Origin: an uncultured Syntrophales bacterium
GTDB taxonomy: Bacteria > Desulfobacterota > Syntrophia > Syntrophales > JAAYKM01
NCBI GenBank assembly: GCA_964541005.1
Contig: CAZIPU010000001.1
Span: 4,493-36,492 of the forward strand
Length of the DNA stretch: 32,000 bases
Direction of reading: 5' to 3'
Within the stretch, counting starts at the first letter, position 1. Each line of letters opens with the position of its first letter. Of the stretch, positions 2,733 through 32,000 are shown piece by piece. A program made the translations under genes and the position numbers. The notes below the pieces were generated by a model. That model did no database searches. It saw nothing but the letters and a program-made list of their open reading frames with translations, and was not told where the DNA came from.

Positions 2733-3740
2733 ATGGAGGAAATCCGGCCCTTGATGAATGAACGCACAACGATCGTTTCGTCGACAGGAAGTTACCTGCC
2801 GGAAAAGCGGGTCGGCAACGACGATTTGACACAGTTTCCCCGGGAGGCGATCCCTCTGATCGCGGAGAAAACGGGGGTGCATTACCGGCGGGTGGCGTCC
2901 GACGACGAGTGCACGTCCGACCTGGCGATCCGTGCGGCAAAAAAGTGCCTCGAAAAAGGGGGCATCGATCCCATGCAGGTCGAGGGGATTATCCTGGCAA
3001 CCTCTTCCCCCGACCGCATGCAACCGGCAACGGCAACCCGGGTGCAGGATCTTCTCGGGGCCAGGCAGGCTTTCGCCCTGGACATCAATTCGGTCTGTTC
3101 CGGAAGCACCTTCGGCATCGCCCTGGCGGATGGCCTCATCCGGTCGGGCCAGGCCGACCGGATCCTGCTGATCGCATCGGAGGTTTATTCGAGAATTCTG
3201 AATCCGAAGGATTACACAACCTTCCCCTTTTTCGGAGACGGCGCGGGAGCGGTCCTGCTTCGTGCCGGTATCAGAGAGGAAGGAGGAATTCTCCGTTCCT
3301 GCCTGCGGAGCGACGGCGGCGGAAGCGAGATGATCTGTGTTCCCGCCGGAGGGACGCAACTGCCCTTCGGCCGGATGACCCATCCCCGATCGGCGTTCTT
3401 CCGCATGAGGGGTGCCGATGTGTTTTCCTTTGCCGTCGAGAAGGTCCCGGAGATCATCCGGCAACTTCTGGCAGAGGCCGGGGTTTCCATCTCCGCGATC
3501 CGCTGCTTTGTCTGCCACCAGGCCAACGCAAATATCATCTATAAGGTTGCTGAGATACTTGATGTCCCGGTCGAGCGGTTTTTCATGAACCTGTCCGATT
3601 ACGGGAACACGGCCGGGGCCTCCGTGCTGATTGCCCTGGACGAAGCTCTGACGGAAGGAATGATCCGGCAGGGCGACCTGGTGGTGACGGTTGCCTTCGG
3701 GGGGGGGCTTTCCTGGGGGGCAAACCTGATTCAAATATAA
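2733..3740 (+). CDS. 3-oxoacyl-ACP synthase III (KAS III, FabH-like)
   Basis: 335 aa. Cys-His-Asn triad contexts are present: NSVCSGSTFGIALA, VCHQANANII, YGNTAGASV. C-terminal GGGLSWGA. The start could also be the internal MNERTT. Confidence 0.9.
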   Translation: MEEIRPLMNERTTIVSSTGSYLPEKRVGNDDLTQFPREAIPLIAEKTGVHYRRVASDDECTSDLAIRAAKKCLEKGGIDPMQVEGIILATSSPDRMQPATATRVQDLLGARQAFALDINSVCSGSTFGIALADGLIRSGQADRILLIASEVYSRILNPKDYTTFPFFGDGAGAVLLRAGIREEGGILRSCLRSDGGGSEMICVPAGGTQLPFGRMTHPRSAFFRMRGADVFSFAVEKVPEIIRQLLAEAGVSISAIRCFVCHQANANIIYKVAEILDVPVERFFMNLSDYGNTAGASVLIALDEALTEGMIRQGDLVVTVAFGGGLSWGANLIQI

Positions 3741-3754
3741 AATGAGGACGAGAT

Positions 3755-4033
3755 ATGACGGACCTTTGGAATCAACTGAAAGCGGTTCTTCTGGAAGAAT
3801 TCCTGGAGATTGCCGACGGAACGGCGGTAACCGAAAAAACGAAACTGGCCGAAATTCCCAACTGGGACTCCATGGCGGCGGTGAACCTGCAAATTCTGAT
3901 CAACGAGATCTTCCAGGTCGAACTGCCCCTGGACCTCCTGCAGGATGAAGCCACCTTCGAGGAATTGATCGGATTCATCCGGGAGCCGGAAACCATTGCC
4001 GACGCCATGCGGCGCTTCCATGAAAGAAGTTGA
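3755..4033 (+). CDS. Acyl carrier protein (ACP-1)
   Basis: 92 aa, acidic, helical pattern. Phosphopantetheine-attachment-like motif IPNWDSMAAVNL (DS). Sits 14 nt downstream of the KAS III gene. Confidence 0.8.
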   Translation: MTDLWNQLKAVLLEEFLEIADGTAVTEKTKLAEIPNWDSMAAVNLQILINEIFQVELPLDLLQDEATFEELIGFIREPETIADAMRRFHERS

Positions 4034-4101
4034 AGGATTCGGGAGAAGTCATCCGGCTTGTCCATGCCCCGCCGGGTTTCAAGGTTTTCAACAGGAGGAA
4101 G

Positions 4102-4122
4102 GGGGAGGCTTTTGGCCTCCCC
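4102..4122 (+). terminator. GC-rich hairpin downstream of ACP-1 (terminator-like, no U-tract)
   Basis: GGGGAGGC-ttttg-GCCTCCCC, an 8-bp perfect stem about 70 nt after the ACP stop. It is followed by gcggttag rather than a T-run, so it is only a weak intrinsic-terminator candidate. Confidence 0.3.
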
Positions 4123-4631: not shown

Positions 4632-4660
4632 TTGACATCCGCAGCGGCTTTTCCTATACT
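4632..4660 (+). promoter_or_regulatory. Near-consensus sigma70-like promoter (TTGACA-N17-TATACT) for the long operon starting at 4831
   Basis: TTGACA 4632-4637, a 17-nt spacer, TATACT 4655-4660. This implies a 5' leader of about 165 nt before ATG 4831. Confidence 0.5.
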
Positions 4661-4830: not shown

Positions 4831-5550
4831 ATGGAATACAACCGAGCGGCCGTGGTGATTCCGGTCTACAATCATGAAGAAAAAGTGGCTGAGGTCATTA
4901 GGCAGGCGATGTGCCTCCTTCTGCCCATTTACGTGGTCGACGACGGATCCACCGACGGCACTTACGAACGGATCAAGGGCATCCCGGAAATCACCGTCCT
5001 GCGCCATGAGAAAAACCTGGGAAAGGGCGCTGCACTGATGACGGGATTCGCCGCGGCGGCTCCCACGGCGGAATGGGCCATCACCATCGATGCCGACGGC
5101 CAGCATAATCCGGAAGACAGTTGGAACCTGTTCCAAGCGGTTGAGAAGGGGACACGGCCCATCGTGATCGGCTGCCGGCAGGGTATGGATCATCGGCATG
5201 TTCCGTTTGCAAGCCGTTTCGGGCGGGGATTCTCCAATTTCTGGGTGCGGATGTCCGGCGGACCCGTTCTCACGGACAGCCAAAGCGGTTTCCGTCTCTA
5301 TCCCCTGCCCGAGATACTGTACATGCCCGTCGAGTCTCAGCGTTTTCAGTTCGAGGTGGAAATCCTGGCCCGGGCCGGATGGAAGGGCATGCCGGTTCTG
5401 GAGGCCCCGGTCGGCGTTACTTATGCGCCCAAGCAGGAAAGGGTCTCCCATTACCGGGGTTTTGTCGATTTCTTCCGAAATGCCGCCACTTTCAGCCGTC
5501 TGATCATTCTGAGACGGTTTATCCTGCCTTTCACCCGGTTCAGAAATTGA
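4831..5550 (+). CDS. Family 2 glycosyltransferase (GT-A fold)
   Basis: 239 aa. AVVIPVYNHEEKV, VVDDGSTDGT, ITIDADGQHNPED (DxD). No C-terminal TM domain. The stop overlaps the next start (TGATG). Confidence 0.9.
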   Translation: MEYNRAAVVIPVYNHEEKVAEVIRQAMCLLLPIYVVDDGSTDGTYERIKGIPEITVLRHEKNLGKGAALMTGFAAAAPTAEWAITIDADGQHNPEDSWNLFQAVEKGTRPIVIGCRQGMDHRHVPFASRFGRGFSNFWVRMSGGPVLTDSQSGFRLYPLPEILYMPVESQRFQFEVEILARAGWKGMPVLEAPVGVTYAPKQERVSHYRGFVDFFRNAATFSRLIILRRFILPFTRFRN

Positions 5551-8500
5551 TGAGAGCGCATCCGTATCTTTCCCGGTGGATTCTGGCCGGCGTCATCCTC
5601 ATGATCGTCGCGGGGCTTTTTGCCGCCGGTGTTCATCGCCTCAGATTCGACACCGATGTCCTCAATGCCCTTCCCCAGGATGACCCGGTTCTGGTCGACG
5701 GCCGCTATGTTTTTCTCCATCACCCCATTCAGGACCGCATCGTGGTCGATGTCGGCCAGGCCGGAGGGGATGTGGAACGGCTGGTCGGAGCAGCCGGACT
5801 GATCGAACGGCGCATGCGGGAAAGCGGCCTCTTCCGGAAAGTCGGTCTTGAATCCATGGGCCGCCTTTTCCCGGAACTTCTGCGCCACACGGTGGATCAT
5901 CTTCCCGCTCTTTTCGATTCGGACGAGTTGGAAAGGCTGATTGCGCCCTTGCTGGCTCCGGAAAGGGTCAGGCAGGCCCTTGAGGGCCACATTCAATCCT
6001 TCGGCAATCTGGAAGGAATCGGTCAGGCATCCCTCATCGCCGGCGACCCCCTGGGTTTCCGAAATCTTATCCTGGCCCGTCTGTCCAATCTCGCCCCCGC
6101 GAAAGGGGCAACGATCCATAAAGGTCGGCTCCTCTCTGCGGACAGGAAACATCTTCTCATCCTGGCCGAACCCGTCAGTTCCGGAATGGATACCCGTTTT
6201 GCCCTTAAAATCACGACCTTCATGGAAAAAATCGCCCGGGAAGTCAACGCCGTTTACGGTCCGGAAAGCGGTCTTGTCCTGACGCCCGTCGGAGCATACC
6301 GGGCCGCCCTCGACAACGAAACGAATGCCAAGAAAAACGTCCACCGGGCGGTGACTTTTTCCACCGTGGCCATTGCGTTGCTGCTGCTGGTCTGTTTTCC
6401 CCGGCCCCTGATCGGTCTGCTGGCCCTTCTGCCGGCCTTTGCGGGTACGATGACGGCATTTTTCGTCTATTCCCTTTTCCATGCCACCATTTCCCTCATG
6501 GCGGTCGGCTTCGGCGGGGCGATCATCTCCTTTACCGTCGATTACGGCCTGACCTATCTGCTTTTTCTCGACCGTCCTTATGAGACGCGGGGCATGGACG
6601 CCACGAAAGAAGTCTGGAACCTGGGCCTTCTGGCCATGATGACCACGGCCGTCAGTTTCGCCTTCCTGACCTTTTCAGGATTTCCCGCCCTGGTGGAAAT
6701 CGGCCAGTTTGCCGCCCTGGGGGTGCTGTTTACGTATATCTTCGTCCATCTCGTTTTCCCCCTGGTCTTTCCCGTGATACCGCCGGCAAAAAGGCCGCCT
6801 CTGCTCCCGCTTCAGGCTTTCGTCACCCGCCTGGCCTCTTCCGGATCAATGTGGAAAGTCTATGCGGCCGCCGCTCTGGGGCTGTTCATGCTCTTTTTCG
6901 CCCGCCCGGAGTTTCATATCAACCCGGCGGCGATGAATACCGTAACGCCGGAAACGATGCAGGCGGAACAGCTTGTCCGGAATGTCTGGGGCGATATTTT
7001 CAGCAAGGTCTACCTCCTGGTGGAGGGCGAAAATTCCCGGGATCTGCAGCGGAAATGCGATCGTCTGTCCGTGATGCTGGATCGGGAAGTGAAGGCACGG
7101 CGCCTGTCCCAGGTCTTTGTCCCTTCGATGATTTTCCCCGGGGAGGACCGGGCCCGGACAAATCTTGCCGCCTGGGAACAATTCTGGACCCCTCAGCGGC
7201 GGGACGAATTGAAAAGGACCATCGGGACGGCCGCAGCGCCCCTCGGGTTTTCAACCGCGGCCTTCGATCCATTCTGGAAAAGGCTCGGGGAAAAGCATCC
7301 TGCGGACATCGAGATGCCGGAGCGGTTCTCCGACCTGCTGGGTATCTCTACCAACCGGGATCGCTCCCGCCGGTTCTTCGTCGCCACCCTTACCCCCGGC
7401 CCCGCCTACAATGGAGAGGCTTTTTTCCGGAGTTTTTCCGGGATTGCGGGAACACGGGTGTTTGATCCCGATCTCTTCGGCAAAAGGCTCGGTTCGGTCC
7501 TCATGTCGGCCTTCATCCGCATGGCGGCGATTGTAGGGATTGTCTCCATTTTTGTCGCGTTCATTGTTTTTCTCGACTGGAAGCTGACCCTGATCGGCCT
7601 GCTGCCGACCCTGTTCGCCATGATCTGTACCCTGGGGACCCTGAATCTCATGGGAGAACCCCTGGGAATTCCCGTTGTCATGGTTTCCGTCGTCGTCATC
7701 GGGATGGGAACGGACTACGCCCTGTACATCGCCCGCTCCTTCCAGCGGTATTTCCGGGACGACCATCCCTCCATGGGCCTTGTCCGCACGTCCGTGTTCC
7801 TTTCCTTTGCCACGACTTCTCTCGGATTCGGCGTCCTGGCCCTGTCGGATAACGCCCTGCTGAAAAACGCGGGTCTCGGTCTCGCCCTGGGAATCGGTTA
7901 TTCCTTCCTGGGGGCCGTGATGATTGCACCGCCGCTTCTAAAACGGGTTTTCGTTCCCGTCACCTTACCCGAAGAGAAAGTAGTCCCGGGATCGGAAAGG
8001 CACTTTGCACGGGTTCTTGACCGTTACCGCCATATGGAGGCCTATCCCCGGCTTTTCGCACGTTTCAAAATCCTCATCGATCCCATGTTTCCTCGCCTGG
8101 CGGATTTCCTGCAGTCGCCGAAAACGATCATCGATATCGGAACGGGCTTCGGTATTCCCGCAACATGGCTGCTGGAATTGCACCCTCAAGCCAGGCTCTA
8201 CGGAATCGAACCGAACCGGAAGCGGGTTGAAGTGGCCTCCAGGGTGATCGGGACGCGCGGCGATGTGCAGGTGGGATGCGCCCCTGACATACCCGCAATC
8301 CCGGGACAGGCCGACACGGCGCTCCTGATCGATATGACTCATATGATTGCGGACGACGAATTGCGACTTACCCTGAAGCGGATCCGCGAGAAACTGACAT
8401 CCGACGGGACGGTCATCATCCGGGCAACGGTTCACAGGGAGCACACCTCCCCCTGGAAACGGCGGATCGAAGCAATGAAAAACAGGGCGATGAAATGCCT

Positions 8501-8642
8501 GTCCCGCTTTCGGACGGAAAAAGAGATCTGTGGCATGCTGTCGGTATCCGGTTTTGACGTGATTCAAACGGAGCCGAGCACCCCGGGTCATGAGGAGGTG
8601 TGGTTTGTCGCACGGGTCAGAGAAACAAATAAGGCGGGATAG
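5550..8642 (+). CDS. MMPL/RND-superfamily lipid exporter (APE ApeM-like) fused to a C-terminal class I SAM-dependent methyltransferase
   Basis: Track ORF 5379..8642. I place the start at ATG 5550 (MRAHPYLSRWILAGVILMIV...), in frame and overlapping the GT2 stop. There are two 5-6-helix hydrophobic bundles (about aa 330-480 and 700-860 of the track ORF) with large loops before each. The tail has IIDIGTGFGIPATWLL (motif I GxGxG), LYGIEPN and TALLIDMTH. Confidence 0.8.
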   Translation: MRAHPYLSRWILAGVILMIVAGLFAAGVHRLRFDTDVLNALPQDDPVLVDGRYVFLHHPIQDRIVVDVGQAGGDVERLVGAAGLIERRMRESGLFRKVGLESMGRLFPELLRHTVDHLPALFDSDELERLIAPLLAPERVRQALEGHIQSFGNLEGIGQASLIAGDPLGFRNLILARLSNLAPAKGATIHKGRLLSADRKHLLILAEPVSSGMDTRFALKITTFMEKIAREVNAVYGPESGLVLTPVGAYRAALDNETNAKKNVHRAVTFSTVAIALLLLVCFPRPLIGLLALLPAFAGTMTAFFVYSLFHATISLMAVGFGGAIISFTVDYGLTYLLFLDRPYETRGMDATKEVWNLGLLAMMTTAVSFAFLTFSGFPALVEIGQFAALGVLFTYIFVHLVFPLVFPVIPPAKRPPLLPLQAFVTRLASSGSMWKVYAAAALGLFMLFFARPEFHINPAAMNTVTPETMQAEQLVRNVWGDIFSKVYLLVEGENSRDLQRKCDRLSVMLDREVKARRLSQVFVPSMIFPGEDRARTNLAAWEQFWTPQRRDELKRTIGTAAAPLGFSTAAFDPFWKRLGEKHPADIEMPERFSDLLGISTNRDRSRRFFVATLTPGPAYNGEAFFRSFSGIAGTRVFDPDLFGKRLGSVLMSAFIRMAAIVGIVSIFVAFIVFLDWKLTLIGLLPTLFAMICTLGTLNLMGEPLGIPVVMVSVVVIGMGTDYALYIARSFQRYFRDDHPSMGLVRTSVFLSFATTSLGFGVLALSDNALLKNAGLGLALGIGYSFLGAVMIAPPLLKRVFVPVTLPEEKVVPGSERHFARVLDRYRHMEAYPRLFARFKILIDPMFPRLADFLQSPKTIIDIGTGFGIPATWLLELHPQARLYGIEPNRKRVEVASRVIGTRGDVQVGCAPDIPAIPGQADTALLIDMTHMIADDELRLTLKRIREKLTSDGTVIIRATVHREHTSPWKRRIEAMKNRAMKCLSRFRTEKEICGMLSVSGFDVIQTEPSTPGHEEVWFVARVRETNKAG

Positions 8643-8666: not shown

Positions 8667-9566
8667 TTGAAAGATCGCTTTTATCGAATTCTAACGGTTC
8701 TGTCGAAAGGAGCAGGCCTGTGGCTGTTTCGCCTCGTTGCCTGGGGGATTGCCTCGGGATATTTTTTCCTGTTCCCTTCCCGTGTTGCCGTCAGTGTCCG
8801 TTTTTACCGGGCCCTTTTCCCGTTCCGGAGCCGGGCCTATCACCTCTTCTGTGCCTGGAAGCAATTTCATCACTTCACCCATGTCTTTCTCGACCGCCTG
8901 CTCTGCGATGAAGACTATCCGCTGAAAATGGTCCAGGACGGTACGGCATATCTCGAACAGGCCATCGGGAACAAAGAAGGAGGGATTCTCCTGATGTCCC
9001 ATCTGGGCAACTGGGAACTGGCCGCCCGGAAGCTCCTGAAACTTTACGGCCGGGTCTGTCCTGACATGAAGCTGCTTCTGTACCTGGGACGGAAGCACAA
9101 GGAGCAGATCGAGGGGAGGCAGAAACAGGACCTGGCCGCTCAGGGAATAGAAATTATCGCCGTGGATCCCCACGGGGCGTCTCCCGTTGATCTGGTGGAG
9201 GGAATTCATTTCCTGAAAAAGGGGGGCCTCGTATCCATGACGGGGGACCGGAGGTGGTGGGAGGATCAGCGTTATGTCCCGGTAAGCTTTCTGGGCTGTG
9301 AAGCCCGTCTCCCCGAGGCGCCTTTTGTCTTATCCCTGCTCTCGGGCAAGCCGATTTATATCTTTTTCGCCCATCGCGTGGCCCGTCACACCCACCGTTT
9401 CCGCATTCTCCCCCCCCTGTACGTCCAGGCCGGAAACAGAAGCGAACGGCAGGACGCTGTCCGACGGGCGGCCCAGATATATGCGGATCACCTGGAAGAG
9501 ATGGTCCGGAAGGCACCCTTCGAGTGGTTCCATTTTGAACCTTTTATCGGCAGGAAGTGGTCATGA
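8667..9566 (+). CDS. LpxL/HtrB-family lysophospholipid/lipid A-type acyltransferase (APE ApeD-like)
   Basis: 299 aa with a TTG start. N-terminal TM segment, MSHLGNWELAARKL (HxxNWE catalytic motif), VSMTGDRRW. Confidence 0.8.
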   Translation: MKDRFYRILTVLSKGAGLWLFRLVAWGIASGYFFLFPSRVAVSVRFYRALFPFRSRAYHLFCAWKQFHHFTHVFLDRLLCDEDYPLKMVQDGTAYLEQAIGNKEGGILLMSHLGNWELAARKLLKLYGRVCPDMKLLLYLGRKHKEQIEGRQKQDLAAQGIEIIAVDPHGASPVDLVEGIHFLKKGGLVSMTGDRRWWEDQRYVPVSFLGCEARLPEAPFVLSLLSGKPIYIFFAHRVARHTHRFRILPPLYVQAGNRSERQDAVRRAAQIYADHLEEMVRKAPFEWFHFEPFIGRKWS

Positions 9567-16670: not shown

Positions 16671-16755
16671 AAGGTGGAATAAAAGGACTTGAATGACCGG
16701 AAGGTCTTTTATAGATTCAAAGTGCAGTCATTTTAACGAGGAGGAATGGATACCC

Positions 16756-24779: not shown

Positions 24780-26308
24780 TACAGACGCCTCCCCGTTTGG
24801 AACAGGAAATGGACGGCGCATGGATTCGTTATCCCCGGACCCTTTCCGTCTCGGCCTACCTCTGGGACCACCATTTCATGGGCAAAACGATTTTCCCCGC
24901 CGTCGAAATTCTCCAGGGCCTCGCCGCCAGCGTGCTGGATCACAGACCGGGAACAAAGGTAACGTCCTTACGGGGAGCTTCCTTCGACCGGTTTCTGGAA
25001 CTCGCTGAAAACGATCGTGAACATACCGTATTCCACGATCTGAAAGCGGACGGAAAAGGCCTGGTGTCCGCACGGCTGGTAACCGTTTCTCCGTCCGGGA
25101 AAGCAGGCATCCTGCGGGAAAAGGTCCATGCCGCGGTCGATTTTACGGCACCGGTGAAGGACGACGCGGAATTTCCCATGGATCTGGCGGCGTCAGTGGA
25201 AGGAATCGGTTACCGGATCCCTGCGGAGCAACTCTACCGGAAACTCATTCCTTTCGGCCCCGCCTACCGGAACCTTCAAGGTGATGTGATCCTGACGGAA
25301 AACGGCGGGGTGGCACAGGTCCGGGCTGCGGAATACCCGGCTCCCACGGTGCCCCTGGGTTCGACCTTTCCCTTCGACGGAATCATGCATATCGCCTGTG
25401 CCTGGAGTCAACGTTTTCACGGAATTGTCGCTTTTCCCGTCGGCTTCGACGAAAGGATCGTTCCGATCCCGACCATTACGGGAGAAACCTATTTCTGCCG
25501 GGTTTTGCCCGTTTCCGTCATGAAAGAAGAACTGACTTTCGACATGGCGATTTACGATCCGGAAGGAAGGATAAGGGAATTCATCCGGGGCTTGAAGATG
25601 AAGGACGTTTCGGGAGGACGCGTCAGGCCGCCCGGATGGGTCCGGTTCGACGGCACCGATTCCCTGGCCACGATCCGGAAGCACTGCGAGGCGCTCTGTG
25701 TCATCGAGGAGACGGCCCTCGCCGGTTTTGCCGCCGATGCCCTGACGGCCGGAGAGAGGGCCCGTTTCGACCGGATGGGGGTTCGCAGGAGGAAAAGCTA
25801 CCTGATGGGACGCCTGGTCCTTAAAACCCTGGCGCGAAAACTGGCGGGACGGGACCGGCAAACCCCGTCATCGGCGATCCACACCATGATGGAGGACGGC
25901 ATCAGGCCGTTCTGCCCCGATTTGGCCGGCCGGGGTCCTGTTTTTTGTTCCCTTTCCCACGACCGGCGCTTCGCCGTGGCCGCCGGGGGGGCGGAACCGA
26001 TGGGGATCGATGTGGAAGTCCTCTCCGGACGGGCCCTGAAGGCGAGGCACCTCTACATGGGAGAAGCGGAGTCAAACCTGGCCGACCGGTCTTCCCTGGG
26101 CGTCCTGGCCGCAGCGTTGCGGGTCTGGTCCATCAAGGAAGGGGTGACGAAGGTCCTCAATATGCCCATCGGAGAAGCCTGGAAAAGGGTCAGGGTCCTG
26201 GATATCGGGTTTCACGAGAGCCGCCTGACCGTGGACGTCGAACGTTTTACGGCATTCCACGATACGGTGGACGATCATGTATTTACCCTGGTGAAGAGGG
26301 AATCATGA
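24776..26308 (+). CDS. Fusion: PKS-type double-hot-dog dehydratase + Sfp-type 4'-phosphopantetheinyl transferase
   Basis: 510 aa, GTG start in a GTGA overlap with the PlsC-like stop. N-part: LWDHHFMGKTIFPAVEIL (HxxxGxxxxP) and FPFDGIMHIACAW (DxxxH/Q). C-part: RKSYLMGRLVLK, PMGIDVEVL, VWSIKEGVTKVL (W/F-S-x-K-E), the PPTase motifs. Confidence 0.75.
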   Translation: MIQTPPRLEQEMDGAWIRYPRTLSVSAYLWDHHFMGKTIFPAVEILQGLAASVLDHRPGTKVTSLRGASFDRFLELAENDREHTVFHDLKADGKGLVSARLVTVSPSGKAGILREKVHAAVDFTAPVKDDAEFPMDLAASVEGIGYRIPAEQLYRKLIPFGPAYRNLQGDVILTENGGVAQVRAAEYPAPTVPLGSTFPFDGIMHIACAWSQRFHGIVAFPVGFDERIVPIPTITGETYFCRVLPVSVMKEELTFDMAIYDPEGRIREFIRGLKMKDVSGGRVRPPGWVRFDGTDSLATIRKHCEALCVIEETALAGFAADALTAGERARFDRMGVRRRKSYLMGRLVLKTLARKLAGRDRQTPSSAIHTMMEDGIRPFCPDLAGRGPVFCSLSHDRRFAVAAGGAEPMGIDVEVLSGRALKARHLYMGEAESNLADRSSLGVLAAALRVWSIKEGVTKVLNMPIGEAWKRVRVLDIGFHESRLTVDVERFTAFHDTVDDHVFTLVKRES

Positions 26309-26342
26309 CATCCGGAGTGAAACAGGAAAAGGGAAGGCAGGG

Positions 26343-26924
26343 ATGATCCCCTTTGTCGTCACCATGGCCGGGGCCTACCTGGCGGGCTCCGTAAACTTTG
26401 CCATTATACTGTTCGCCTCCCTGGGGAAAGAGGACCCCAGGTCCCGCTTCAGCGGTAACGCCGGAGTGACCAACGTCCGGCGCCAGGCGGGGCTCGCCTG
26501 GGCTGTCCTGGTCCTTTTGCTCGATTTGATCCGGGCGCTGGGCGTTTCCTTTATCGCCCTCTATTTCCTGCCGAAAGAGATGGTGCCCTGGGTGGGCCTG
26601 GCCCTGGTGCTCGGCAACCGCTTTCCCTGCTTCCACGGTTTCCGGGGGGGGAAGGGAGTGGCCGCGTATCTCGGTTTTACCATCCCCGTCGCCCCTTATG
26701 CGGCAGTCCTGTCCGCCCTTGTCTGGGTGGGCATTTACGGAATCGCCCGCAGGCCCTTTATTGCCTCCTTCGGTATGGTCGCCGTCCTTGCAGCAGGCAC
26801 GGCCACTGTTTTCGGATATGATGCAACGGCAGCAACGGGCACCGTGGCGACGGCGCTTTTGATTTATTTCAACCACCGGGAGAACATGAAGGAACTTTTT
26901 GGGAAAAAATCAGGAAGGACCTGA
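26343..26924 (+). CDS. plsY: PlsY-family acyl-phosphate:glycerol-3-phosphate acyltransferase (divergent copy)
   Basis: 193 aa polytopic membrane protein. FSGNAGVTNVRR (compare canonical GSGNxGATN), LGNRFPCFHGFRGGKGVAAYLG (compare GHxFPxF..GGKGVAT), C-terminal YFNHRENMKELF. Confidence 0.8.
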   Translation: MIPFVVTMAGAYLAGSVNFAIILFASLGKEDPRSRFSGNAGVTNVRRQAGLAWAVLVLLLDLIRALGVSFIALYFLPKEMVPWVGLALVLGNRFPCFHGFRGGKGVAAYLGFTIPVAPYAAVLSALVWVGIYGIARRPFIASFGMVAVLAAGTATVFGYDATAATGTVATALLIYFNHRENMKELFGKKSGRT

Positions 26925-27098: not shown

Positions 27099-27177
27099 CT
27101 TCGCGCTTGAAGACAGTGCAACGGTCGAAAACGATTCTCATCTGCAGAAAATTTAAGGGAAGGATAGATCATCACCT

Positions 27178-28056
27178 TTGGAAAAGAATATCCTGGTCAT
27201 CTATTACAGCCAGACGGGACAACTGAAGCAGATTGTGGATTCTCTGCTTTCGCCCCTTGCCGCCAATTCCATGTTTTCCATCGATTACCTGGAAATCCGG
27301 CCGGCGGTGGCCTACCCTTTTCCCTGGATCCGGAACGCTTTTCTGGATGTTTTTCCCGAATCCGTTCTGGAAGCGCCGATCGGCTTGAAGCCGGTCGAGG
27401 CTAAATATCGCGGCGCGTACGATTTGATCATCCTGGCCTTTCAGCCCTGGTACCTGTCGCCGTCTCTGCCCATATCGGCATTTCTGAAAAGTCCGGAAGC
27501 GGCCGGGATTCTGAAAGGACAACGGATCGTAACCGTCATCGGGGCGCGAAACATGTGGATTAAGTCCCTTGAATGCGTCAAGGAAAGGATAGAATTCCTC
27601 GGGGGAACCCTCGCCGGCAACATCGCCTTGACGGACCGGGCACTTAATCTGGTCAGCGTCGTAACGATTGTTTACTGGATGTTCCGGGGAAAGAAGGACC
27701 GCTGCCTGGGTGTCTTTCCGAAACCGGGGGTATCCGATGCGGATATCCATGCCGCCGCCCGCTTCGGGAAGGTTTTAGAAAAAGCCCTGATCAATGACCG
27801 GACGGATCGGGTCGGGGAAGAATTGGCCAAGCTCGGCGCGGCGGAGATAAATGATTCGTTGGCGAGACTGGAGAATCGTGCTAAGAGGATCTTTAAAATG
27901 TGGGCGAATTTGATCACAAAGCATTCTAAGATCAGGCGGTTATTGCTGAATCTTTTTTTTATCGAGCTGATTTTGGGCCTTGTCATCTTGTCCCCCTTAT
28001 ATTCTCTTTTCGGTATCATACTAAAACCTTTCAGGATAAAAACGGCACGGGCATAG
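27178..28056 (+). CDS. darA: DarA-like protein (flavodoxin-like N-domain; dialkylresorcinol pathway partner of DarB)
   Basis: 292 aa, TTG start. N-terminus (M)EKNILVIYYSQTGQLKQIVDSL is flavodoxin-fold-like and matches what I recall of DarA N-termini. C-terminal hydrophobic helix LLLNLFFIELILGLVILSPLY. The stop abuts the DarB-like ATG (TAGATG). The assignment rests on memory of the family plus synteny. Confidence 0.55.
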   Translation: MEKNILVIYYSQTGQLKQIVDSLLSPLAANSMFSIDYLEIRPAVAYPFPWIRNAFLDVFPESVLEAPIGLKPVEAKYRGAYDLIILAFQPWYLSPSLPISAFLKSPEAAGILKGQRIVTVIGARNMWIKSLECVKERIEFLGGTLAGNIALTDRALNLVSVVTIVYWMFRGKKDRCLGVFPKPGVSDADIHAAARFGKVLEKALINDRTDRVGEELAKLGAAEINDSLARLENRAKRIFKMWANLITKHSKIRRLLLNLFFIELILGLVILSPLYSLFGIILKPFRIKTARA

Positions 28057-29199
28057 ATGGAGAATCAGGTCTATATTACGAAATTAGCGAAGTTCTTACC
28101 GAACGAACCGGTTTCCAATGAGGGGATGGAGGACATCCTGGGCAGGATAAACGGCCGGCCATCCAAAATCCGAACCCTCGTTTTGAAAAGCAACGGCATC
28201 CGAACCCGTTACTACGCCATCGATGACCGGGGGCGTTTCACCCACACCAATGCGGAACTGACGGCCAATGCCATCCGTTCCCTGATGGATTCGTCTCTGA
28301 AGATCTCAGATGTGGAACTTCTGTGCTGCGGCACCTCCATTCCCGACCAGATTCTACCCTCCCATGCAGCCATGGTTCAGGGCTGCCTCGGTGCACCGCC
28401 GTTCGAAATCGTTTCCACGGCCGGCGCCTGCTGTTGCGGGATTCATGCCCTCAAGTACGGCATGCTTTCGATCATGGGCGGCAATTCTTCCAACGCGGTC
28501 TGCGCCGCATCCGAACTGGTTTCGCCGTTGCTGATGTCCCGCCATTACGAGAATGAACTGGCCGGCCTCCAGCGGTTGAAACGGCGGCCCATCATCGCAT
28601 TTGAAAAGGATTTCCTGCGGTGGATGCTCTCCGATGGCGCCGGCGCCGTCCTGCTGGAGAATAAACCGAACCGCCGGGATGGCCTGTCTTTAAGGATCGA
28701 TTCGATCGATACCTGTTCCTTCGCCGGAGAAGTCGCCGCCTGCATGTACGCCGGAAGCAGCCGGAACGGAGGAGGGGAACTGGTCAGCTGGAAAAATCAT
28801 TCCCCCGAGGAATGGCTGGAGAATTCCACCTTTGCCATCAAGCAGGATGTCAAGCTGCTGGATAAACACATCGTCAAGCTCGGCACGAGGAAGCTGGCCG
28901 AAACCCTGAAAAAACGGGGCGTCAGTTCCGGAGACATCTCTTTCCTGCTGCCCCATATTTCATCCGAGCATTTCCGCAAACCCCTGGACCGCGAAATGAA
29001 TGAACAGGGGATTCCGATTCCCCAGGAGCGGTGGTTCACCAATCTTGCCACGGTGGGCAACATCGGCAGCGCCTCGATCTACCTGATGATGGAGGAACTG
29101 TTCCACTCCGGCAAACTCGACCGGGACATGAAGATTCTGGCCCTCGTGCCGGAAAGTTCCCGGTTCAGTTACGCCTTCATGCTGATGACGGTCTGCTGA
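28057..29199 (+). CDS. darB: KAS III-like condensing enzyme of the DarB type (head-to-head condensing ketosynthase)
   Basis: 380 aa. VYITKLAKFLPNEPVSNEGMEDILGRINGRPS is a DarB-like N-terminus as I recall it. Cys-His-Asn contexts: TAGACCCGIHALKYG, LPHISSEHF, VGNIGSASIYL. It differs clearly from the FabH-like gene at 2733. Confidence 0.65.
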   Translation: MENQVYITKLAKFLPNEPVSNEGMEDILGRINGRPSKIRTLVLKSNGIRTRYYAIDDRGRFTHTNAELTANAIRSLMDSSLKISDVELLCCGTSIPDQILPSHAAMVQGCLGAPPFEIVSTAGACCCGIHALKYGMLSIMGGNSSNAVCAASELVSPLLMSRHYENELAGLQRLKRRPIIAFEKDFLRWMLSDGAGAVLLENKPNRRDGLSLRIDSIDTCSFAGEVAACMYAGSSRNGGGELVSWKNHSPEEWLENSTFAIKQDVKLLDKHIVKLGTRKLAETLKKRGVSSGDISFLLPHISSEHFRKPLDREMNEQGIPIPQERWFTNLATVGNIGSASIYLMMEELFHSGKLDRDMKILALVPESSRFSYAFMLMTVC

Positions 29200-29200
29200 G

Positions 29201-29629
29201 ATGAAACGGGAACAGGTACCCCAGGACGACGACCGCCTCATGGAGGGGCGCACCCGCGACCTCTGCTATGCCGTTGACGAAAACGGCGAGTATGTCCAGG
29301 TGTTGAGCACGGGGTGGGAGCCCAAGAATGCCGCTCTCATGCAGGCATGGGAAGAGATCGGCGAGCAGGCGAAGGCAATTTATTCCCAGGTGCAGGCCGG
29401 ACAAGTCAGTCCGATCGCCTTTTTTATGGCCCAGTGCATGTTCGATATCAAGCTCCTGTCGGATTACACGGGTTTGCCGAAAAGAAAGGTCAAGGCGCAT
29501 CTGGAACCCGAGCAGTTCAGGCGACTCGACGCAGAGACCCTGAAAAGCTATGCCGAGGCGTTCAACATCACGGTCGAAGACCTGGTGAACTGCACCAATA
29601 CGGCCGATCCTTTTTCCGAGGAGAAATAA
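29201..29629 (+). CDS. Hypothetical protein (possible C-terminal helix-turn-helix)
   Basis: 142 aa, starting 1 nt after the DarB-like stop. Codon usage is like its neighbours. The segment IKLLSDYTGLPKRKVKAHLEPEQF looks HTH-like, but no motif is recognised with confidence. Confidence 0.5.
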   Translation: MKREQVPQDDDRLMEGRTRDLCYAVDENGEYVQVLSTGWEPKNAALMQAWEEIGEQAKAIYSQVQAGQVSPIAFFMAQCMFDIKLLSDYTGLPKRKVKAHLEPEQFRRLDAETLKSYAEAFNITVEDLVNCTNTADPFSEEK

Positions 29630-29648
29630 CCCTTCCCGATGGTAATCC

Positions 29649-30650
29649 ATGATCGTTGATTTCAAACACAGGCAGGCCGCACACTGTGAAAACGGGGTAA
29701 CGTCGAATATATTCAGGTATTACGGTGTCGATCTATCCGAGGCCATGGCATTCGGAATCGGCTCGGGCCTCTTTTTCATTTACATGCCCTTTCTCAAGTA
29801 CAACGGGATTCCCGTCAGCTCGTTTCGACCCCTGCCCGGCATGATTTTCAAGCGGGCCACGCGCCTCCTCGGCATCAGGATTTACCGGAAGGCGTTCCGG
29901 GACAAGACGGCGTCCATGAAGGCTCTCGACGAGGCCCTCGACCGCCACATCCCGGTGGGGCTTCAGGTCGGCGTTTTTCACCTGGCCTACTTTCCCCGGC
30001 CCTACCGTTTCCATTTCAACGCCCACAATCTTGTGGTTCTGGGCAGGGAAAACGGCCGTTACGTTATCAGCGATCCCGTCATGGAAAGCCTGGAGTCTTT
30101 GAGCTATGACGAGTTGTTGCGGGTCCGCTGGGCCCGGGGCCTTTTCCAGCCGAAGGGGAAAATGTACTACCCTGTGAAGATCCCCGGGAAGATCGATCTG
30201 GCATCCGCCATTGTCAAGGGCATCCGGAAGAATTGCCGGGAAATGCTGAGCATTCCCATCCCATTTCTGGGTGTCCGGGGAATCCGCTACCTGGCCCGGG
30301 ACATCCGGCGGTGGCCGGCGAAACTGGGCGATAAAAAGGCCGCCCTGCACCTGGGGCAGTTCATCCGGATGCAGGAGGAAATCGGGACCGGCGGCGCCGG
30401 ATTCCGGTTCATTTATGCCGCCTTCCTCCAGGAGGCATCGAAAATATTGAACAAACCCCGGCTCCAGGAGCTGTCGGAGAACATGACCGACTGCGGCGAC
30501 CGATGGCGGGAATTTGCCGTCATGGCGGCCCGGATCATCAAGAACCGCAGCGGCGAGGGAGAGTCCTACGAGGCCATGTCCGCCATTCTTCTGGAAATCG
30601 CGGACCGGGAACAGGCCATCTTTAAGGAATTAAGGAAAGCCGTTACATGA
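29649..30650 (+). CDS. BtrH-N/DUF4872-like protein (putative ACP-dependent acyl/aminoacyl transferase or cysteine hydrolase fold)
   Basis: 333 aa. FKHRQAAHCENGVTSNIFRYYGVDLSEAMAFGIGSGLFFIY matches the BtrH N-terminal domain pattern (conserved HCE...G...SE.M.FG.GSG) as I recall it. Confidence 0.6.
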   Translation: MIVDFKHRQAAHCENGVTSNIFRYYGVDLSEAMAFGIGSGLFFIYMPFLKYNGIPVSSFRPLPGMIFKRATRLLGIRIYRKAFRDKTASMKALDEALDRHIPVGLQVGVFHLAYFPRPYRFHFNAHNLVVLGRENGRYVISDPVMESLESLSYDELLRVRWARGLFQPKGKMYYPVKIPGKIDLASAIVKGIRKNCREMLSIPIPFLGVRGIRYLARDIRRWPAKLGDKKAALHLGQFIRMQEEIGTGGAGFRFIYAAFLQEASKILNKPRLQELSENMTDCGDRWREFAVMAARIIKNRSGEGESYEAMSAILLEIADREQAIFKELRKAVT

Positions 30651-31399
30651 CAACACCGCCCGTCATAGAGGTTTCCGGACTGAGGAAGGTTTATAAAGGG
30701 TCGGCCAAGCCCGCCGTCGATGACCTCTCTTTCGCCGTTTCCGAAGGGGATATTTTCGGGCTTCTGGGTCCGAACGGTGCGGGAAAGTCAACGACCCTCA
30801 TGACGCTTTGCGGGCTCTTAGGCATCGATGGGGGACGTATCCGGGTTTTCGGCCTCGACGCCCGTCTGAAAGGGTCTGAAATCCGCAGCCGCGTCGGCGT
30901 GGCCACCCAGGAAATCGCCCTGTTCCCTTCCCTGACGGCCCGCGAGAACCTCCTCTATTTCGGCCGGATGTACGGGCTCGAAGGATCGGAAATCCGGGAG
31001 CGGATGCAGAATCTCCTGGCGGGGTTCGGCCTGTCGGACAATGCGGACAGGCGGGTTGCTCATTTTTCGGGCGGGATGAAAAGGCGCCTCAACCTCATCG
31101 CGGCCCTGCTCAACCGGCCGCGGCTGCTCTTTCTCGATGAACCGACGTCGGGGGTGGACGTGCAGTCCCGCAACATGATTTTAGCCTACATGCGCCGGAT
31201 GAAAACAAAGGGGGTAACGATTGTCTATTCATCCCATCTCCTGGAAGAGGCGGAGAAAATCTGCGACCGGTTCGCCATTATCGACGAAGGCCGGCTGGTG
31301 GCTGCAGGAACCCTGGAAGAGATGCTCGGACAAAACGGGGGCTGTGATAACCTGGAACAGTTGTTTCTCCACCTGACCGGCAGAGGAATCCGCGATTGA
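30647..31399 (+). CDS. ABC transporter ATP-binding protein (ABC-2/DrrA-like)
   Basis: 250 aa. Walker A GPNGAGKSTT, signature FSGGMKRRL, Walker B LLFLDEPTSGVD, H-loop SSHLLEE. ATGA overlaps the previous stop. Confidence 0.95.
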   Translation: MTTPPVIEVSGLRKVYKGSAKPAVDDLSFAVSEGDIFGLLGPNGAGKSTTLMTLCGLLGIDGGRIRVFGLDARLKGSEIRSRVGVATQEIALFPSLTARENLLYFGRMYGLEGSEIRERMQNLLAGFGLSDNADRRVAHFSGGMKRRLNLIAALLNRPRLLFLDEPTSGVDVQSRNMILAYMRRMKTKGVTIVYSSHLLEEAEKICDRFAIIDEGRLVAAGTLEEMLGQNGGCDNLEQLFLHLTGRGIRD

Positions 31400-32000
31400 A
31401 GATTCTGGCAACCATGAAAAAAGAACTCCTGCTGCTCATCCGCGATCCGGGCGGCATGGCACTTCTGTTTCTCATGCCCCTGGCCCTGGTGGTCGTGATG
31501 GCCCTTGTCCAGGACAACACCTTCCGTGAGTTCCAGGAGACGAGGCTGGACGTTCTTTTCCTCGATCAGGACAGGGGCGAGCTGGGTTCAAGTATTGAGG
31601 AGGCCCTCCAGTCCGGGGGCAACATCCGCCTCATCACAAAAGAGGCCGGGAAGGACCTCACGGTGGATCAGGCCGGAAGCCTGGTGCGAAAAGGCCGCTA
31701 CAAGGCGGCGGTGATCATTCCGGCCGGGGCCGGGGAAGCCCTGCGGAAGAAAACGAAACAAACCGCGCAGGCGTTTCTGGCCTCCTATGGTTTCGCCGAC
31801 GGCGAGCAGGATGGGAAGGAGTCGCCAAGAGTGGAATTACAGATCCTCTTCGATCCCGTCATCAAGGCCAACTACCGCCAGAGCCTGGCGGGAGGGCTGG
31901 AGAGAATCCTGACAGGTCTCCAGGCGGACTGGTTCATGGCGGAAATACAGTCGCGGTTCGGCGGGATAACCAAGTTGGAAGGAAAGAAAATCGACCTGGG
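31396..32000 (+). CDS. ABC-2-type transporter permease, N-terminal part (runs off the window)
   Basis: Not in the track because it has no stop. My translation from TTG 31396 (TTGA overlap), or from ATG 31414, reads (M)KILATMKKELLLLIRDPGGMALLFLMPLALVVVMALV... It has one TM helix followed by a long soluble loop, as in YhhJ/ABC-2 permeases, and is open to nt 31998. Confidence 0.75.
   Translation, partial: MKILATMKKELLLLIRDPGGMALLFLMPLALVVVMALVQDNTFREFQETRLDVLFLDQDRGELGSSIEEALQSGGNIRLITKEAGKDLTVDQAGSLVRKGRYKAAVIIPAGAGEALRKKTKQTAQAFLASYGFADGEQDGKESPRVELQILFDPVIKANYRQSLAGGLERILTGLQADWFMAEIQSRFGGITKLEGKKIDL

Follow-up and report, generated by a model that had tools for sequence, protein, structure and literature searches.

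A modular lipid-type gene cluster with a conserved radical SAM core, and its possible envelope-lipid product, in an uncultured Syntrophales bacterium

The DNA considered here, a stretch of 32,000 nucleotides from an uncultured Syntrophales bacterium (assembly GCA_964541005.1, contig CAZIPU010000001.1, positions 4,493 to 36,492), is referred to in its entirety as the window. Its G+C content is ~57%, and its nearest named relatives are metagenome-assembled genomes (MAGs) of Syntrophales/Syntrophaceae. From position 2733 to position 32000 the window is occupied by an unbroken array of 29 co-directional plus-strand genes, which open reading frame (ORF) listing and Pfam and NCBIfam scans identify as a lipid cluster resembling type II fatty acid synthase and polyketide synthase (PKS) systems. 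An earlier, sequence-only reading had proposed such a cluster over the same extent, and these scans bear it out; its consecutive plus-strand array stands, whereas its count of 26 genes gives way to 29, three of the functions that it listed being fusions. The domain scans also confirm the functions listed there, among them six condensing-enzyme genes encoding seven ketosynthase (KS)-fold domains, one of which is a chain-length factor (CLF), four acyl carrier proteins (ACPs) and three radical S-adenosylmethionine (SAM) enzymes. The Cys-His-His triad is kept in every KS active site and is absent from the CLF. Many neighbouring genes overlap by 1-26 nt or are spaced by less than 75 nt, the larger gaps being those of 797 nt before the glycosyltransferase gene GT2, 167 nt before ACP3 and 253 nt before DarA.

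The array continues beyond the window. On contig L083, which is 99.1% identical to window positions 23306-32000, the remainder of the ABC-2 permease gene is followed by genes for an ACP, a KS and a CLF (four further genes); domain typing of this contig indicates that the downstream KS is active and that its neighbour is a CLF-like partner. The array ends at the equivalent of position ~35261, ~3.3 kb past the window, for a total of ~32.5 kb, and is bordered there by the convergent hydrogenase-maturation genes hypE and hypF. Three of its genes are fusions: KS with CLF, an RND-like exporter with a SAM methyltransferase, and a PKS-type dehydratase (DH) with an Sfp-type phosphopantetheinyl transferase (PPTase). 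The first two are also found at full length in two relatives whose B12-binding radical SAM enzymes are 85% (locus L001) and 74% (locus L002) identical to that of the window, and the third is encoded as a single gene of 510 aa in L001, L002 and L087 and of 506 aa in L089. Identical copies of the B12-binding radical SAM enzyme and of DarB are present in public metagenome assemblies.

Within this array lies a conserved core, consisting of an ACP, the B12-binding radical SAM enzyme (B12-rSAM), in many relatives a NodB-type deacetylase, a FabZ/ApeI-like DH, a second ACP, two further radical SAM enzymes (rSAM1 and rSAM2), two ketosynthases (KSa and KSb), a thioesterase, the PKS-type DH-PPTase and a PlsY-like acyltransferase. 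The B12-rSAM (13989..15338; all features are on the plus strand unless otherwise stated) belongs, as had been proposed, to the B12-binding radical SAM family of ladderane-type lipid clusters (TIGR04072, kuste3342-type; 391.5 bits against a cutoff of 360). It has Pfam B12-binding and Radical_SAM domains and displays its CxxxCxxC motif as CPFKCIYC at residues 194-201, and the named families that score next after TIGR04072 consist chiefly of C- or P-methyltransferases (TsrM, PhpK, HpnR and the MCR glutamine C-methyltransferase). An identical 449-aa protein (P0001) shows that translation starts at TTG 13989, and the ATG at 14019 is thereby ruled out. The NodB-type polysaccharide deacetylase (15335..16159; Polysacc_deac_1, 88.9 bits) is hydrophobic over residues 10-63 and occurs in 29 of the 39 genome loci compared below. 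The hotdog-fold DH that follows (16230..16670; FabA, 40 bits) exceeds the ApeI-like cutoff (31.5 bits against 28.5) and matches FabZ and 6qsr_A in the PDB; an assignment as amxFabZ-like is rejected, the amxFabZ match being weaker than those to ordinary FabZ and ApeI. Next to it is ACP2 (16693..17016; PP-binding, 40.9 bits; DSM motif), whose true start may lie further downstream, homologues in L001, L002 and L090 being 86-89 aa long.

The paired radical SAM genes stand at the middle of the core. rSAM1 (16991..18127) contains CxxxCxxC at residue 67 and a C-terminal CCx5CxxC motif, and its median identity across the genome loci is 75%. Its paralogue rSAM2 (18186..19184), which also contains CxxxCxxC, is 25% identical to it over the full length, with a C-terminal CCx5-6CxxC motif common to both. 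The most conserved protein of the cluster is rSAM2, at 74-92% identity in the genome loci; its 120 best homologues are 79-93% identical, nearly all of 332 aa, and include proteins of Smithella and Spirochaetes, the identity between Desulfobacterota (Syntrophales, Smithella) and Spirochaetota being ~80%. Among 1.84 billion cluster representatives (50% identity) there are 562 matches at E <= 1e-3, of which one is full length at 76% identity and the next reach at most 37%, the orthologue group thus forming a single full-length 50%-identity cluster. Judged by these searches, rSAM2 is a small, sharply delimited family without a characterised member. For an enzyme of a gene cluster this is an unusual degree of conservation, which points to strong constraint, to a recent horizontal spread of the core, or to both.

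Downstream of rSAM2 are two FabF-like ketosynthases, KSa (19194..20468) and KSb (20503..21768), which score 340 and 375 bits against the fabF model, below its cutoff of 494, and retain Cys-His-His. These are followed by a 4HBT/YbgC-type thioesterase (21769..22248; TIGR00051, 78.9 bits against a cutoff of 68.7; Pfam 4HBT_2). Three genes that vary among relatives come next, namely ACP3 (22416..22682; PP-binding, 39.5 bits; DSI motif), the PRK09116-type KSc (22758..23999; NF006587, 393.9 bits, below the cutoff of 470; Cys-His-His) and a PlsC-type 1-acylglycerol-3-phosphate acyltransferase (24018..24779; Pfam Acyltransferase, 75 bits; TIGR00530, 68.7 bits, below cutoff). The DH-PPTase fusion (24776..26308) has weak matches to PKS_DH_N, 4PPT_N and ACPS, with an HxxxGxxxxP motif (HHFMGKTIFP) near its N-terminus; its homologue in L089 is called PS-DH, and the fusion occurs in 26 of the 39 loci. 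The PlsY-like gene (26343..26924; G3P_acyltransf, 120 bits), which is the last core gene in Smithella and Spirochaetota loci, falls below the TIGR00023 equivalog cutoff (87.2 bits against 137.2) and is thus a divergent paralogue rather than the housekeeping PlsY. An 85-aa ORF downstream (26899-27156) is not accepted as a gene, having no family match and no ACP-like serine context and being uncalled in L083.

The extent of the core emerges from comparison with relatives. At least 563 relatives of the B12-rSAM were found, counting one genome per species; the best 80 were taken, and 39 of their loci have the full 10 kb on each side. Each locus spans at most 10 kb on either side of its anchor, and a module missing from a locus is not necessarily missing from the genome. 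The core is collinear in all 39 of these species-level loci: ACP1 is present in 37 and the FabZ/ApeI-like DH in 36, ACP2, rSAM1, rSAM2 and KSa in 35 each, and KSb and the thioesterase in 32 each, while the DH-PPTase (26) and PlsY (14) are both limited by the locus edge. Other genes are more sporadic, with KS-CLF in 19 loci, CrtI in 8, ACP3, KSc and PlsC in 9-13 and the GT2, exporter-methyltransferase and LpxL genes in 1-5. Carriers of the core include Syntrophales, Smithella, Desulfobacterales, Desulfatiglandales, Spirochaetota and Leptospirales MAGs, across which rSAM2 is 74-93% identical.

Comparison of gene order also addresses whether the sub-blocks are co-conserved, a check that the sequence-only reading had set for itself. 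In L001 and L002 the order is identical from FabH and ACP0 to the DH-PPTase, and the DarAB, KS-CLF/CrtI and GT2/exporter-methyltransferase/LpxL modules are found adjacent in relatives at 61-85% identity. Since relatives at 85%, 74% and 61% B12-rSAM identity preserve the gene order, the array is not a product of chance. The adjacency is therefore not fortuitous and the core is stable across phyla, but the APE-like, KS-CLF/CrtI and DarAB blocks are lineage-specific. The cluster is thus modular, comprising a stable core, a recurrently linked cassette of DarG/DarH, ABC-2, ACP and KS genes, and lineage-specific DarAB, KS-CLF/CrtI, ACP3/KSc/PlsC and GT2/exporter-methyltransferase/LpxL modules.

Some relatives display insertions of their own. 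In Syntrophus sp. SKADARSKE-3 (L089, GCA_030920355.1; positions 2265-3833 and 5411-8271), an extra 522-aa B12-rSAM, 24% identical to that of the window, lies between PlsC and the DH-PPTase; comparison shows no specific likeness to kuste3608, and an assignment to that type is set aside. Second B12-rSAMs of this kind are also found in L115, L125, L138 and L151. A HipBA toxin-antitoxin pair and two PhzF-like fragments break up the L089 cluster further. In L002, a 122-aa '23S_rRNA_IVP' gene (18417-18785) separates the thioesterase from ACP3, a further indication that small insertions are tolerated in these clusters and leave the gene order intact.

Immediately 3′ to the PlsY-like gene, beyond the 253-nt gap, is a dialkylresorcinol (dar) cassette, whose DarA/DarB pair had been called from the sequence and holds up on closer comparison. 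DarA (27178..28056), the predicted dialkylresorcinol aromatase/condensing protein, has no match in Pfam, NCBIfam or PDB sequences and so is identified only through the neighbour of a Bacteroidetes DarB: over its full length of 294 aa it shares 41% identity (E = 4e-83) with the protein that precedes DarB in locus L091, and it is itself encoded directly upstream of DarB. DarB (28057..29199) passes the StlD/DarB ketosynthase model (NF005293, 544.6 bits against a cutoff of 450) and falls just below the stricter resorcinol_DarB 'exception' model (543.2 bits against 550). It is followed by a DarG-family protein (29201..29629; DarG_fam, 147.6 bits against a cutoff of 70; flexirubin_DarG, 155 bits against 170) and by DarH, a BtrH-related acyl-ACP-dependent acyltransferase (29649..30650; DarH_acyl, 470 bits against a cutoff of 300; Pfam BtrH_N and DUF4872). 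An ABC transporter ATPase (30647..31399; ABC_tran, 115 bits) and an ABC-2 permease (31396..32000; ABC2_membrane_3) complete this part of the window, which cuts the permease; the latter is 427 aa long in L083. The resulting order of DarA, DarB, DarG, DarH, ABC ATPase, ABC-2 permease, ACP, KS and CLF-like protein is that of Azoarcus, in which darA, darB, a hypothetical gene, a BtrH-like gene, an ABC ATPase, a permease, an ACP, a KS and darK (darA-B-D-E-F-I-C-J-K) follow one another (PMC3949708).

The association of this cassette with the core is variable but recurrent. It follows PlsY in L087 (74%) after a 6-kb insertion, in Syntrophus sp. SKADARSKE-3 (61%) after the toxin-antitoxin and PhzF insertions, and in the metagenome loci L094, L095 and L099-L101 (PlsY at least 68% identical); core and dar adjacency is thus kept at 74% and 61% identity despite insertions. 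Homologues of DarB and the B12-rSAM lie on contigs of identical length in five further pairs of database matches, the sharing of a contig being only presumed from that length for three of them. Of the metagenome loci, 23 extend 6 kb or more beyond PlsY; DarA/DarB are present in three of these, and five others (L115, L123, L125, L138 and L151) contain DarG/DarH-like genes (28-53% identity) in varying order and orientation with no DarA/DarB within 10 kb. ABC or ABC-2 genes accompany these in three of the five (L115, L123 and L151), and ACP and KS genes in L115 and L151; one further locus (L117) has only ABC, ABC-2, ACP and KS genes, and 14 have none of these. In L125 both the curated DarH model (469 bits against 300) and that of the DarG family are passed. 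The recurrence of DarG/DarH together with ABC-2, ACP and KS genes beside the core indicates functional coupling, and their presence there without DarA/DarB suggests that the 'Dar' names may be too narrow: the BtrH-like acyltransferase probably serves acceptors besides dialkylresorcinols.

The 5′ part of the array contains the starter, sugar, export and KS-CLF genes. FabH (2733..3740; KAS III; NF006829, 325.8 bits against a cutoff of 249; Pfam ACP_syn_III and ACP_syn_III_C) is the likely chain starter, and its position is conserved in L001. Beside it is a small ACP-like gene, ACP0 (3755..4033), with a weak PP-binding match just below cutoff (20.3 bits) and a DSM serine motif at residue 38; homologues of 91-92 aa lie upstream of GT2 in L001 and L002. 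The family 2 glycosyltransferase GT2 (4831..5550; ApeJ/kuste3335-like; Glycos_transf_2, 1.8e-22) precedes a 1030-aa fusion of an RND/MMPL-like exporter and a C-terminal SAM methyltransferase (5550..8642), with weak HAE3, HpnN and MMPL matches, Methyltransf_23/25/11 matches at residues 904-1063 of the long ORF and ~10-12 hydrophobic segments; the fusion is 1031 aa in L001 and 1035 aa in L002. Next are an LpxL/LPLAT-type, ApeD-like acyltransferase (8667..9566; Lip_A_acyltrans, 42 bits against a cutoff of 22.3) and a 134-aa membrane protein (9601..10005) that has no family match and, by hydropathy scan, one hydrophobic segment at residues 38-65. A homologue of the latter is present in 23 of the 39 genome loci and lies upstream of the core ACP in Smithella-type clusters.

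ACP1 (10077..10343; PRK09184/kuste3340-type; PP-binding, 42 bits; PRK09184, 66.8 bits) is followed by the 725-aa KS-CLF fusion (10340..12517; Pfam ketoacyl-synt, Ketoacyl-synt_C and Ketoacyl-synt_2). The KS half has its best PDB match in 9s5h_B (198.6 bits), whose identity as amxFabF2 was checked against the kuste3605 fragment, with Iga11 nearly equal at 182 bits; the CLF half matches ApeC (6qsp_B) and amxFabFmut (9s5h_C) best, both equally weakly. The KS thus resembles that of the ishigamide (Iga11/Iga12) and cispentacin (AmcF/AmcG) systems, scoring well against both Iga11 and the AmcF model, and as in those systems the CLF has no triad. In contrast to the window, however, those systems have separate KS and CLF proteins and are without radical SAM, PlsY/PlsC or dar genes. 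A CrtI/CrtD-like FAD oxidoreductase (12511..13992; Amino_oxidase and NAD_binding_8; crtI_fam below cutoff) then precedes the B12-rSAM gene.

The 797-nt gap between ACP0 and GT2 has features of its own. A sigma-70-like promoter (4632..4660; TTGACA-17-TATACT) lies upstream of GT2, matches the consensus at 11 of 12 positions and is invariant in the window, L001 and L002. Two ORFs in the gap (4030-4239 and 4354-4635) have no family match, and an Rfam scan of the whole window at gathering thresholds finds no riboswitch or RNA family, including cobalamin and SAM riboswitches. A ~540-nt segment (4035-4575) is missing in L001 (85%) and present in L002 (74%), and among 91 loci is found elsewhere only in L002. 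Within it, ~150 nt are near-identical in the window and L002, a degree of conservation above that of the protein genes on either side, and hold a GC hairpin, GGGGGAGGCTTTTGGCCTCCCC, and a run, ATCGGCTCAACATGCCCCTGTTTATTGCCGAATTAT. The element folds more stably than shuffled sequences (z = -2.76) and has no Rfam match; it may be a small noncoding RNA, a terminator or attenuator element, or a miniature mobile insertion.

Upstream of the array, its proximal border is formed by a divergent gene (1159-2529, minus strand) for a 456-aa protein that joins an N-terminal GNAT acetyltransferase to BKACE (279 bits); it is probably unrelated to the cluster, though the fusion is unusual. A 194-aa ORF further upstream (329-913) has no match in Pfam or NCBIfam.

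Similar comparisons can be made with known systems, beginning with the aryl polyene (APE) clusters. As described by Grammbitter et al., the APE core contains the KS apeO/apeR, the ACPs apeE/apeF, the CLF apeC, the DHs apeI/apeP, the ketoreductase (KR) apeQ and the transporter apeM. The window shares with these clusters a KS/CLF whose CLF half points to ApeC, an ApeI-like DH above the Pfam cutoff, PRK09184-type ACPs, a 4HBT thioesterase, an LPLAT-type acyltransferase, a GT2, a putative RND-type exporter and a methyltransferase, although here KS and CLF are fused, as are exporter and methyltransferase. The PRK09184, PRK09185 and PRK09116-type matches and all APE-type family scores lie below the NCBIfam cutoffs. 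Pfam and NCBIfam scans find no KR or other SDR domain in the 29 window genes and the four downstream genes, and no enoyl reductase (ER), aryl-starter enzyme or LolA-like gene among the cluster genes; ApeQ, ApeH (AMP-ligase), ApeL/ApeN (LolA/LolB-like) and ApeG are likewise not found in the cluster. In particular, these scans detect no domain for aryl-starter activation, whether ApeH or tyrosine ammonia-lyase (TAL)/XanB2 with a ligase, and FabH is present instead.

The sequence-only reading knew of no characterised pathway that joins all of these modules and adds PlsC/PlsY, which needs correction in that the full APE product is itself an APE-acylated GalNAc-phosphate-diacylglycerol (bioRxiv 10.1101/2020.12.19.423268). 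In that system the LPLAT ApeD is proposed to transfer the polyene acyl chain onto a lysophospholipid, the glycosyltransferase ApeJ to add the sugar and the RND protein ApeM to export the product (bioRxiv 10.1101/2020.12.19.423268). Because the APE product is a glycerophospholipid, glycerolipid assembly is intrinsic to APE clusters, and the glycerolipid genes of the window are in keeping with this scheme. APE and flexirubin systems nevertheless offer no parallel to the three radical SAM enzymes, the CrtI-like protein, FabH instead of aryl-starter enzymes, the absence of a KR, or the explicit PlsC, PlsY-like and DH-PPTase genes.

The relation to 'ladderane' genes can be drawn from the N-terminal fragments (~128 aa) of 34 candidate Kuenenia genes in the supplementary table of Javidpour et al. 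(2016). Over these fragments the B12-rSAM is 40% identical to kuste3342 (126 aa), GT2 41% identical to kuste3335, ACP1 42% identical to kuste3340, the CrtI-like protein 28% identical to kuste3336 and rSAM2 34% identical to kuste3343 (70 aa), and NodB matches a 44-aa stretch of kuste3351. The kuste3335-3352 cluster also resembles the window in its make-up, which comprises a glycosyltransferase, a CrtI-like protein, a transporter followed by a methyltransferase, a FabZ-like DH, an ACP, a B12-rSAM beside a second radical SAM enzyme, several FabF paralogues and a deacetylase. However, the identities are only 28-42% and cover N-terminal fragments; the Kuenenia cluster contains FabG and a phenylacetyl-CoA-ligase-like gene, and its gene list, as consulted, names no PlsY, DH-PPTase or dar genes. 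Its kuste3337 (membrane protein) and kuste3338 (methylase) are adjacent, separate genes, and the fragments do not show their homology to the window fusion. No window protein matches kuste3608, kuste2803 or amxACP (kuste3603) at E <= 1e-3 over the ~128-aa fragments; these include members of Cluster I (kuste3603-3608), the set now regarded as exclusive to ladderane producers. Of the 'ladderane set' proposed from the sequence, the TIGR04072 membership thus survives, while the correspondence is with kuste3335-3352 and not with the anammox-exclusive Cluster I. As these matches imply, 'ladderane-type' here denotes a widely shared, uncharacterised cluster family rather than an anammox-specific set.

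Together, these genes could constitute a composite biosynthetic operon for a tailored-chain envelope lipid, assembled around a conserved, uncharacterised core, a reading on which we regard the balance as even. The product is probably an uncharacterised membrane lipid with kinship both to the flexirubin pigments and to what the unsolved 'ladderane-type' clusters make; its acyl chain, tailored by radical SAM enzymes, would be built into a glycerolipid, joined by an ester bond to a dialkylresorcinol, or both, before export. Intact catalytic motifs, operon-like packing and one strong, conserved promoter before GT2 favour this reading, as do the matches of the KS-CLF halves to the KS/CLF heterodimers amxFabF, Iga11/12 and ApeO/C. 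In the proposed pathway, the PPTase domain would activate the dedicated ACPs, FabH would prime synthesis, and the KS-CLF fusion, KSa/KSb, KSc and the downstream KS and CLF would elongate the chain on these ACPs. Because no KR is encoded, ketoreduction would fall to the housekeeping FabG, and the two dehydratases, with no ER beside them, would leave unsaturation in the chain as enoyl or polyene intermediates.

Modification of the chain would be independent of oxygen. The B12-rSAM most likely C-methylates, as its nearest named families are class B methylases, and the rSAM1/rSAM2 pair together with the CrtI-like flavoenzyme could perform desaturation, cyclisation or C-C chemistry. The PlsY-like and PlsC-like enzymes would load the chain or chains onto glycerol-3-phosphate, and, by analogy with APE lipids, GT2, NodB and the LpxL-type acyltransferase may build an acylated amino-sugar-phosphate head group. 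In this Syntrophales lineage, DarA and DarB would produce a 2,5-dialkylresorcinol from fatty-acyl intermediates of the downstream ACP, KS and CLF, and DarH would transfer an ACP-bound acyl chain to an acceptor, most likely the resorcinol, as in flexirubin. The exporter-methyltransferase fusion and the ABC-2 transporter would then carry the products to the outer envelope. More tentatively, and with more doubt than conviction, the core may be dedicated to oxygen-independent remodelling of the growing or finished acyl chain by methylation, desaturation or ring/C-C formation, yielding a new class of membrane glycerolipid in many anaerobic Desulfobacterota and Spirochaetota and here, in addition, a dialkylresorcinol ester of the same chain that would be a non-aryl analogue of flexirubin tailored by radical SAM enzymes.

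Several observations weigh against this composite pathway. No product is known for any member of the cluster family, and the roles given to the three radical SAM enzymes are guesses: the AlphaFold model of rSAM2 is of moderate confidence (pLDDT 70.8, with residues 240-297 disordered), and its Foldseek matches are only SPASM/twitch radical SAM enzymes such as TigE, CteB, BlsE and PqqE at TM ~0.4, matches so generic that the fold does not indicate the reaction. The exporter scores are weak (78.8 bits against 351.9 in NCBIfam; Pfam MMPL, E = 0.013), and the LolA-like and DUF3261 partners of APE export are absent from the cluster. Since KR, ER, AT/FabD and PlsX genes are also missing from it, several steps would have to rely on housekeeping enzymes; PlsY normally uses acyl-phosphate, for which the cluster encodes no source. 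Finally, the 797-nt gap with its own conserved promoter would allow FabH-ACP0 to be a transcription unit separate from the rest, and the 253-nt gap before DarA allows for another.

These gaps, and that promoter, also fit independent pathways lying side by side and making separate products: a membrane lipid from the core, an APE-like export and anchoring set, and a dialkylresorcinol cassette. The modular distribution points the same way. Smithella-type loci contain a 13-gene minimal core and nothing else related, and the occurrence of the core there without the Dar, APE-like and KS-CLF modules, which also counts against the composite operon, means that the modules could make separate products. 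A stand-alone DarA-DarB pair exists in the Bacteroidetes MAG of L091, Syntrophus sp. SKADARSKE-3 has neither KS-CLF nor GT2, exporter and LpxL genes upstream of the core, and DarAB is present in only three of the 23 metagenome loci counted above. Yet all of the genes are co-directional and tightly packed, the adjacency of core and dar genes outlasts insertions at 74% and 61% identity, and DarG/DarH, ABC-2, ACP and KS genes recur beside the core in varied arrangements. DarH, moreover, depends on acyl-ACP as its donor, and five or six dedicated ACPs are encoded in the cluster, while known flexirubin clusters join the same kinds of module for a single product. We therefore consider separate pathways unlikely, if worth keeping in mind.

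A second alternative is that the core provides an oxygen-independent route to polyunsaturated fatty acids or hydrocarbons, with the CrtI-like protein and radical SAM enzymes as anaerobic desaturases, an idea of Rattray et al. for Desulfotalea and Kuenenia. Rattray et al. (2009) listed kuste3335-3352 among the Kuenenia clusters syntenic with Desulfotalea, Geobacter and Pelobacter, and Desulfotalea psychrophila, which carries a syntenic cluster of this type, produces C31:8 and C31:9 hydrocarbons but no ladderanes (PMC2649909). The CrtI-like gene, the two dehydratases and the lack of an ER would also fit unsaturated chains. However, the link between the Desulfotalea cluster and its hydrocarbons was never tested (reviewer comments, Rattray et al.). 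In addition, CrtI is present in only 8 of the 39 core loci, and PlsY, DarH and NodB are left unexplained. The C31:9 hydrocarbons of other bacteria arise from Pfa/Ole pathways. Such a route is decidedly improbable as an account of the cluster.

The dar cassette invites comparison with an ordinary flexirubin- or arcuflavin-type pigment, in which an aryl-polyene carboxylic acid would be esterified to a dialkylresorcinol and the radical SAM enzymes would play a minor tailoring role. Both flexirubin (Chitinophaga pinensis and Flavobacterium johnsoniae; PMC3992019) and arcuflavin (Azoarcus sp. BH72; PMC3949708) are esters of an aryl-polyene acid with a 2,5-dialkylresorcinol, and APE-type genes with DarAB, a glycosyltransferase, a polysaccharide deacetylase, an acyltransferase and an exporter make up the published layout of their clusters (PMC3992019, PMC3949708). 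The window has much in common with this layout, including the Azoarcus dar order, the DarB, DarG and DarH family matches, several KS with a KS/CLF, an ApeI-like hotdog DH, a thioesterase, GT2, the deacetylase, an LpxL-type acyltransferase and an RND-like exporter. Unlike those clusters, however, it contains no TAL, XanB2 or CoA/AMP-ligase, FabH being present instead, and no cluster KR or LolA, and it adds three radical SAM enzymes, the CrtI-like protein, FabH, PlsC, the PlsY-like protein and the DH-PPTase. Its most conserved genes are the three radical SAM enzymes, KSa/KSb and PlsY, and the terms radical SAM, phytoene and desaturase are unmatched in the full text of the C. pinensis flexirubin paper (PMC3992019). 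The hosts differ as well: flexirubin and arcuflavin come from Bacteroidota and Betaproteobacteria, whereas this Syntrophales lineage is presumed to be strictly anaerobic, and the reported role of the pigments is protection from reactive oxygen species. An ordinary pigment of this type is thus very unlikely.

A last alternative is ladderane lipids proper, with concatenated cyclobutanes, whose putative cluster is the anammox Cluster I (amxACP, amxFabZ, amxFabF2/amxFabFmut, PDH and a B12-rSAM). The window does share with it a local order of ACP, KS and CLF, CrtI-like protein, B12-rSAM and DH, a KS half whose closest solved structure is amxFabF2 and a CLF half that matches amxFabFmut about as well as ApeC. 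However, the B12-rSAM is of another type, amxACP has no match and the DH is less close to amxFabZ than to FabZ and ApeI; moreover, the pair of KS and catalytically dead CLF, present here as a fusion, is common to APE and ishigamide systems and so is not diagnostic. By these comparisons the window cluster is not orthologous to Cluster I. That such lipids are made here, outside anammox bacteria, is scarcely credible, for although the B12-rSAM passes TIGR04072 ('rSAM_ladder_B12'), the KS half matches amxFabF2 best in the PDB and antiSMASH applies its 'ladderane' label to such clusters in many non-anammox phyla, the matches are to kuste3335-3352 (28-42%, N-terminal fragments) with none to kuste3608, kuste2803 or amxACP, Desulfotalea with its syntenic cluster has no ladderanes (PMC2649909), and the involvement of any such genes in ladderane synthesis is itself unproven.

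The preferred reading, a composite operon for a tailored-chain envelope lipid, is thus made of parts of known kinds, namely flexirubin/APE-type genes, dar cassettes and the non-exclusive 'ladderane-like' set; what is new lies in their particular combination and in the still uncharacterised chemistry of the radical SAM core. Full-text literature searches found no characterised pathway with this gene set, which agrees with the earlier claim that none joins all of these modules with PlsC/PlsY, but the combination of APE genes with DarAB, glycosyltransferase, deacetylase, acyltransferase and exporter was already known. The same searches found nothing linking Syntrophales or Smithella to aryl polyenes, flexirubins or resorcinols, no product for the TIGR04072 family and nothing relevant on DarG/DarH.

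What 'ladderane-like' clusters do in bacteria other than the anammox group has been a question since 2009, and as of 2026 no enzyme of theirs has been tied to a product. The window and its related loci separate a stable ~13-gene core from lineage-specific additions, place its homology with the non-exclusive Kuenenia cluster rather than with Cluster I, and show that genes for a BtrH-type acyl-ACP transferase and an ABC-2 exporter are physically linked to the core, as is, in the window, an entire dialkylresorcinol cassette. From this arrangement follow testable predictions, an acyl-resorcinol ester together with a special glycerolipid, and a minimal gene set for heterologous expression. A 2026 review lists only the ladderanes and the jawsamycin enzyme Jaw5 as proposed cases of radical SAM modification of ketoacyl (non-isoprenoid) lipids, and if the rSAM pair performs new fatty-acyl chemistry it would be an addition to this very short list. 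In sediments and digesters, lipids of this kind could also be so far overlooked biomarkers of anaerobes that live syntrophically or reduce sulfate. A non-anammox carrier of the core may prove easier to grow or to express from, and, since the core is distantly homologous to kuste3335-3352, solving it in such an anaerobe would show the role of that half of the Kuenenia 'ladderane candidate' genes.

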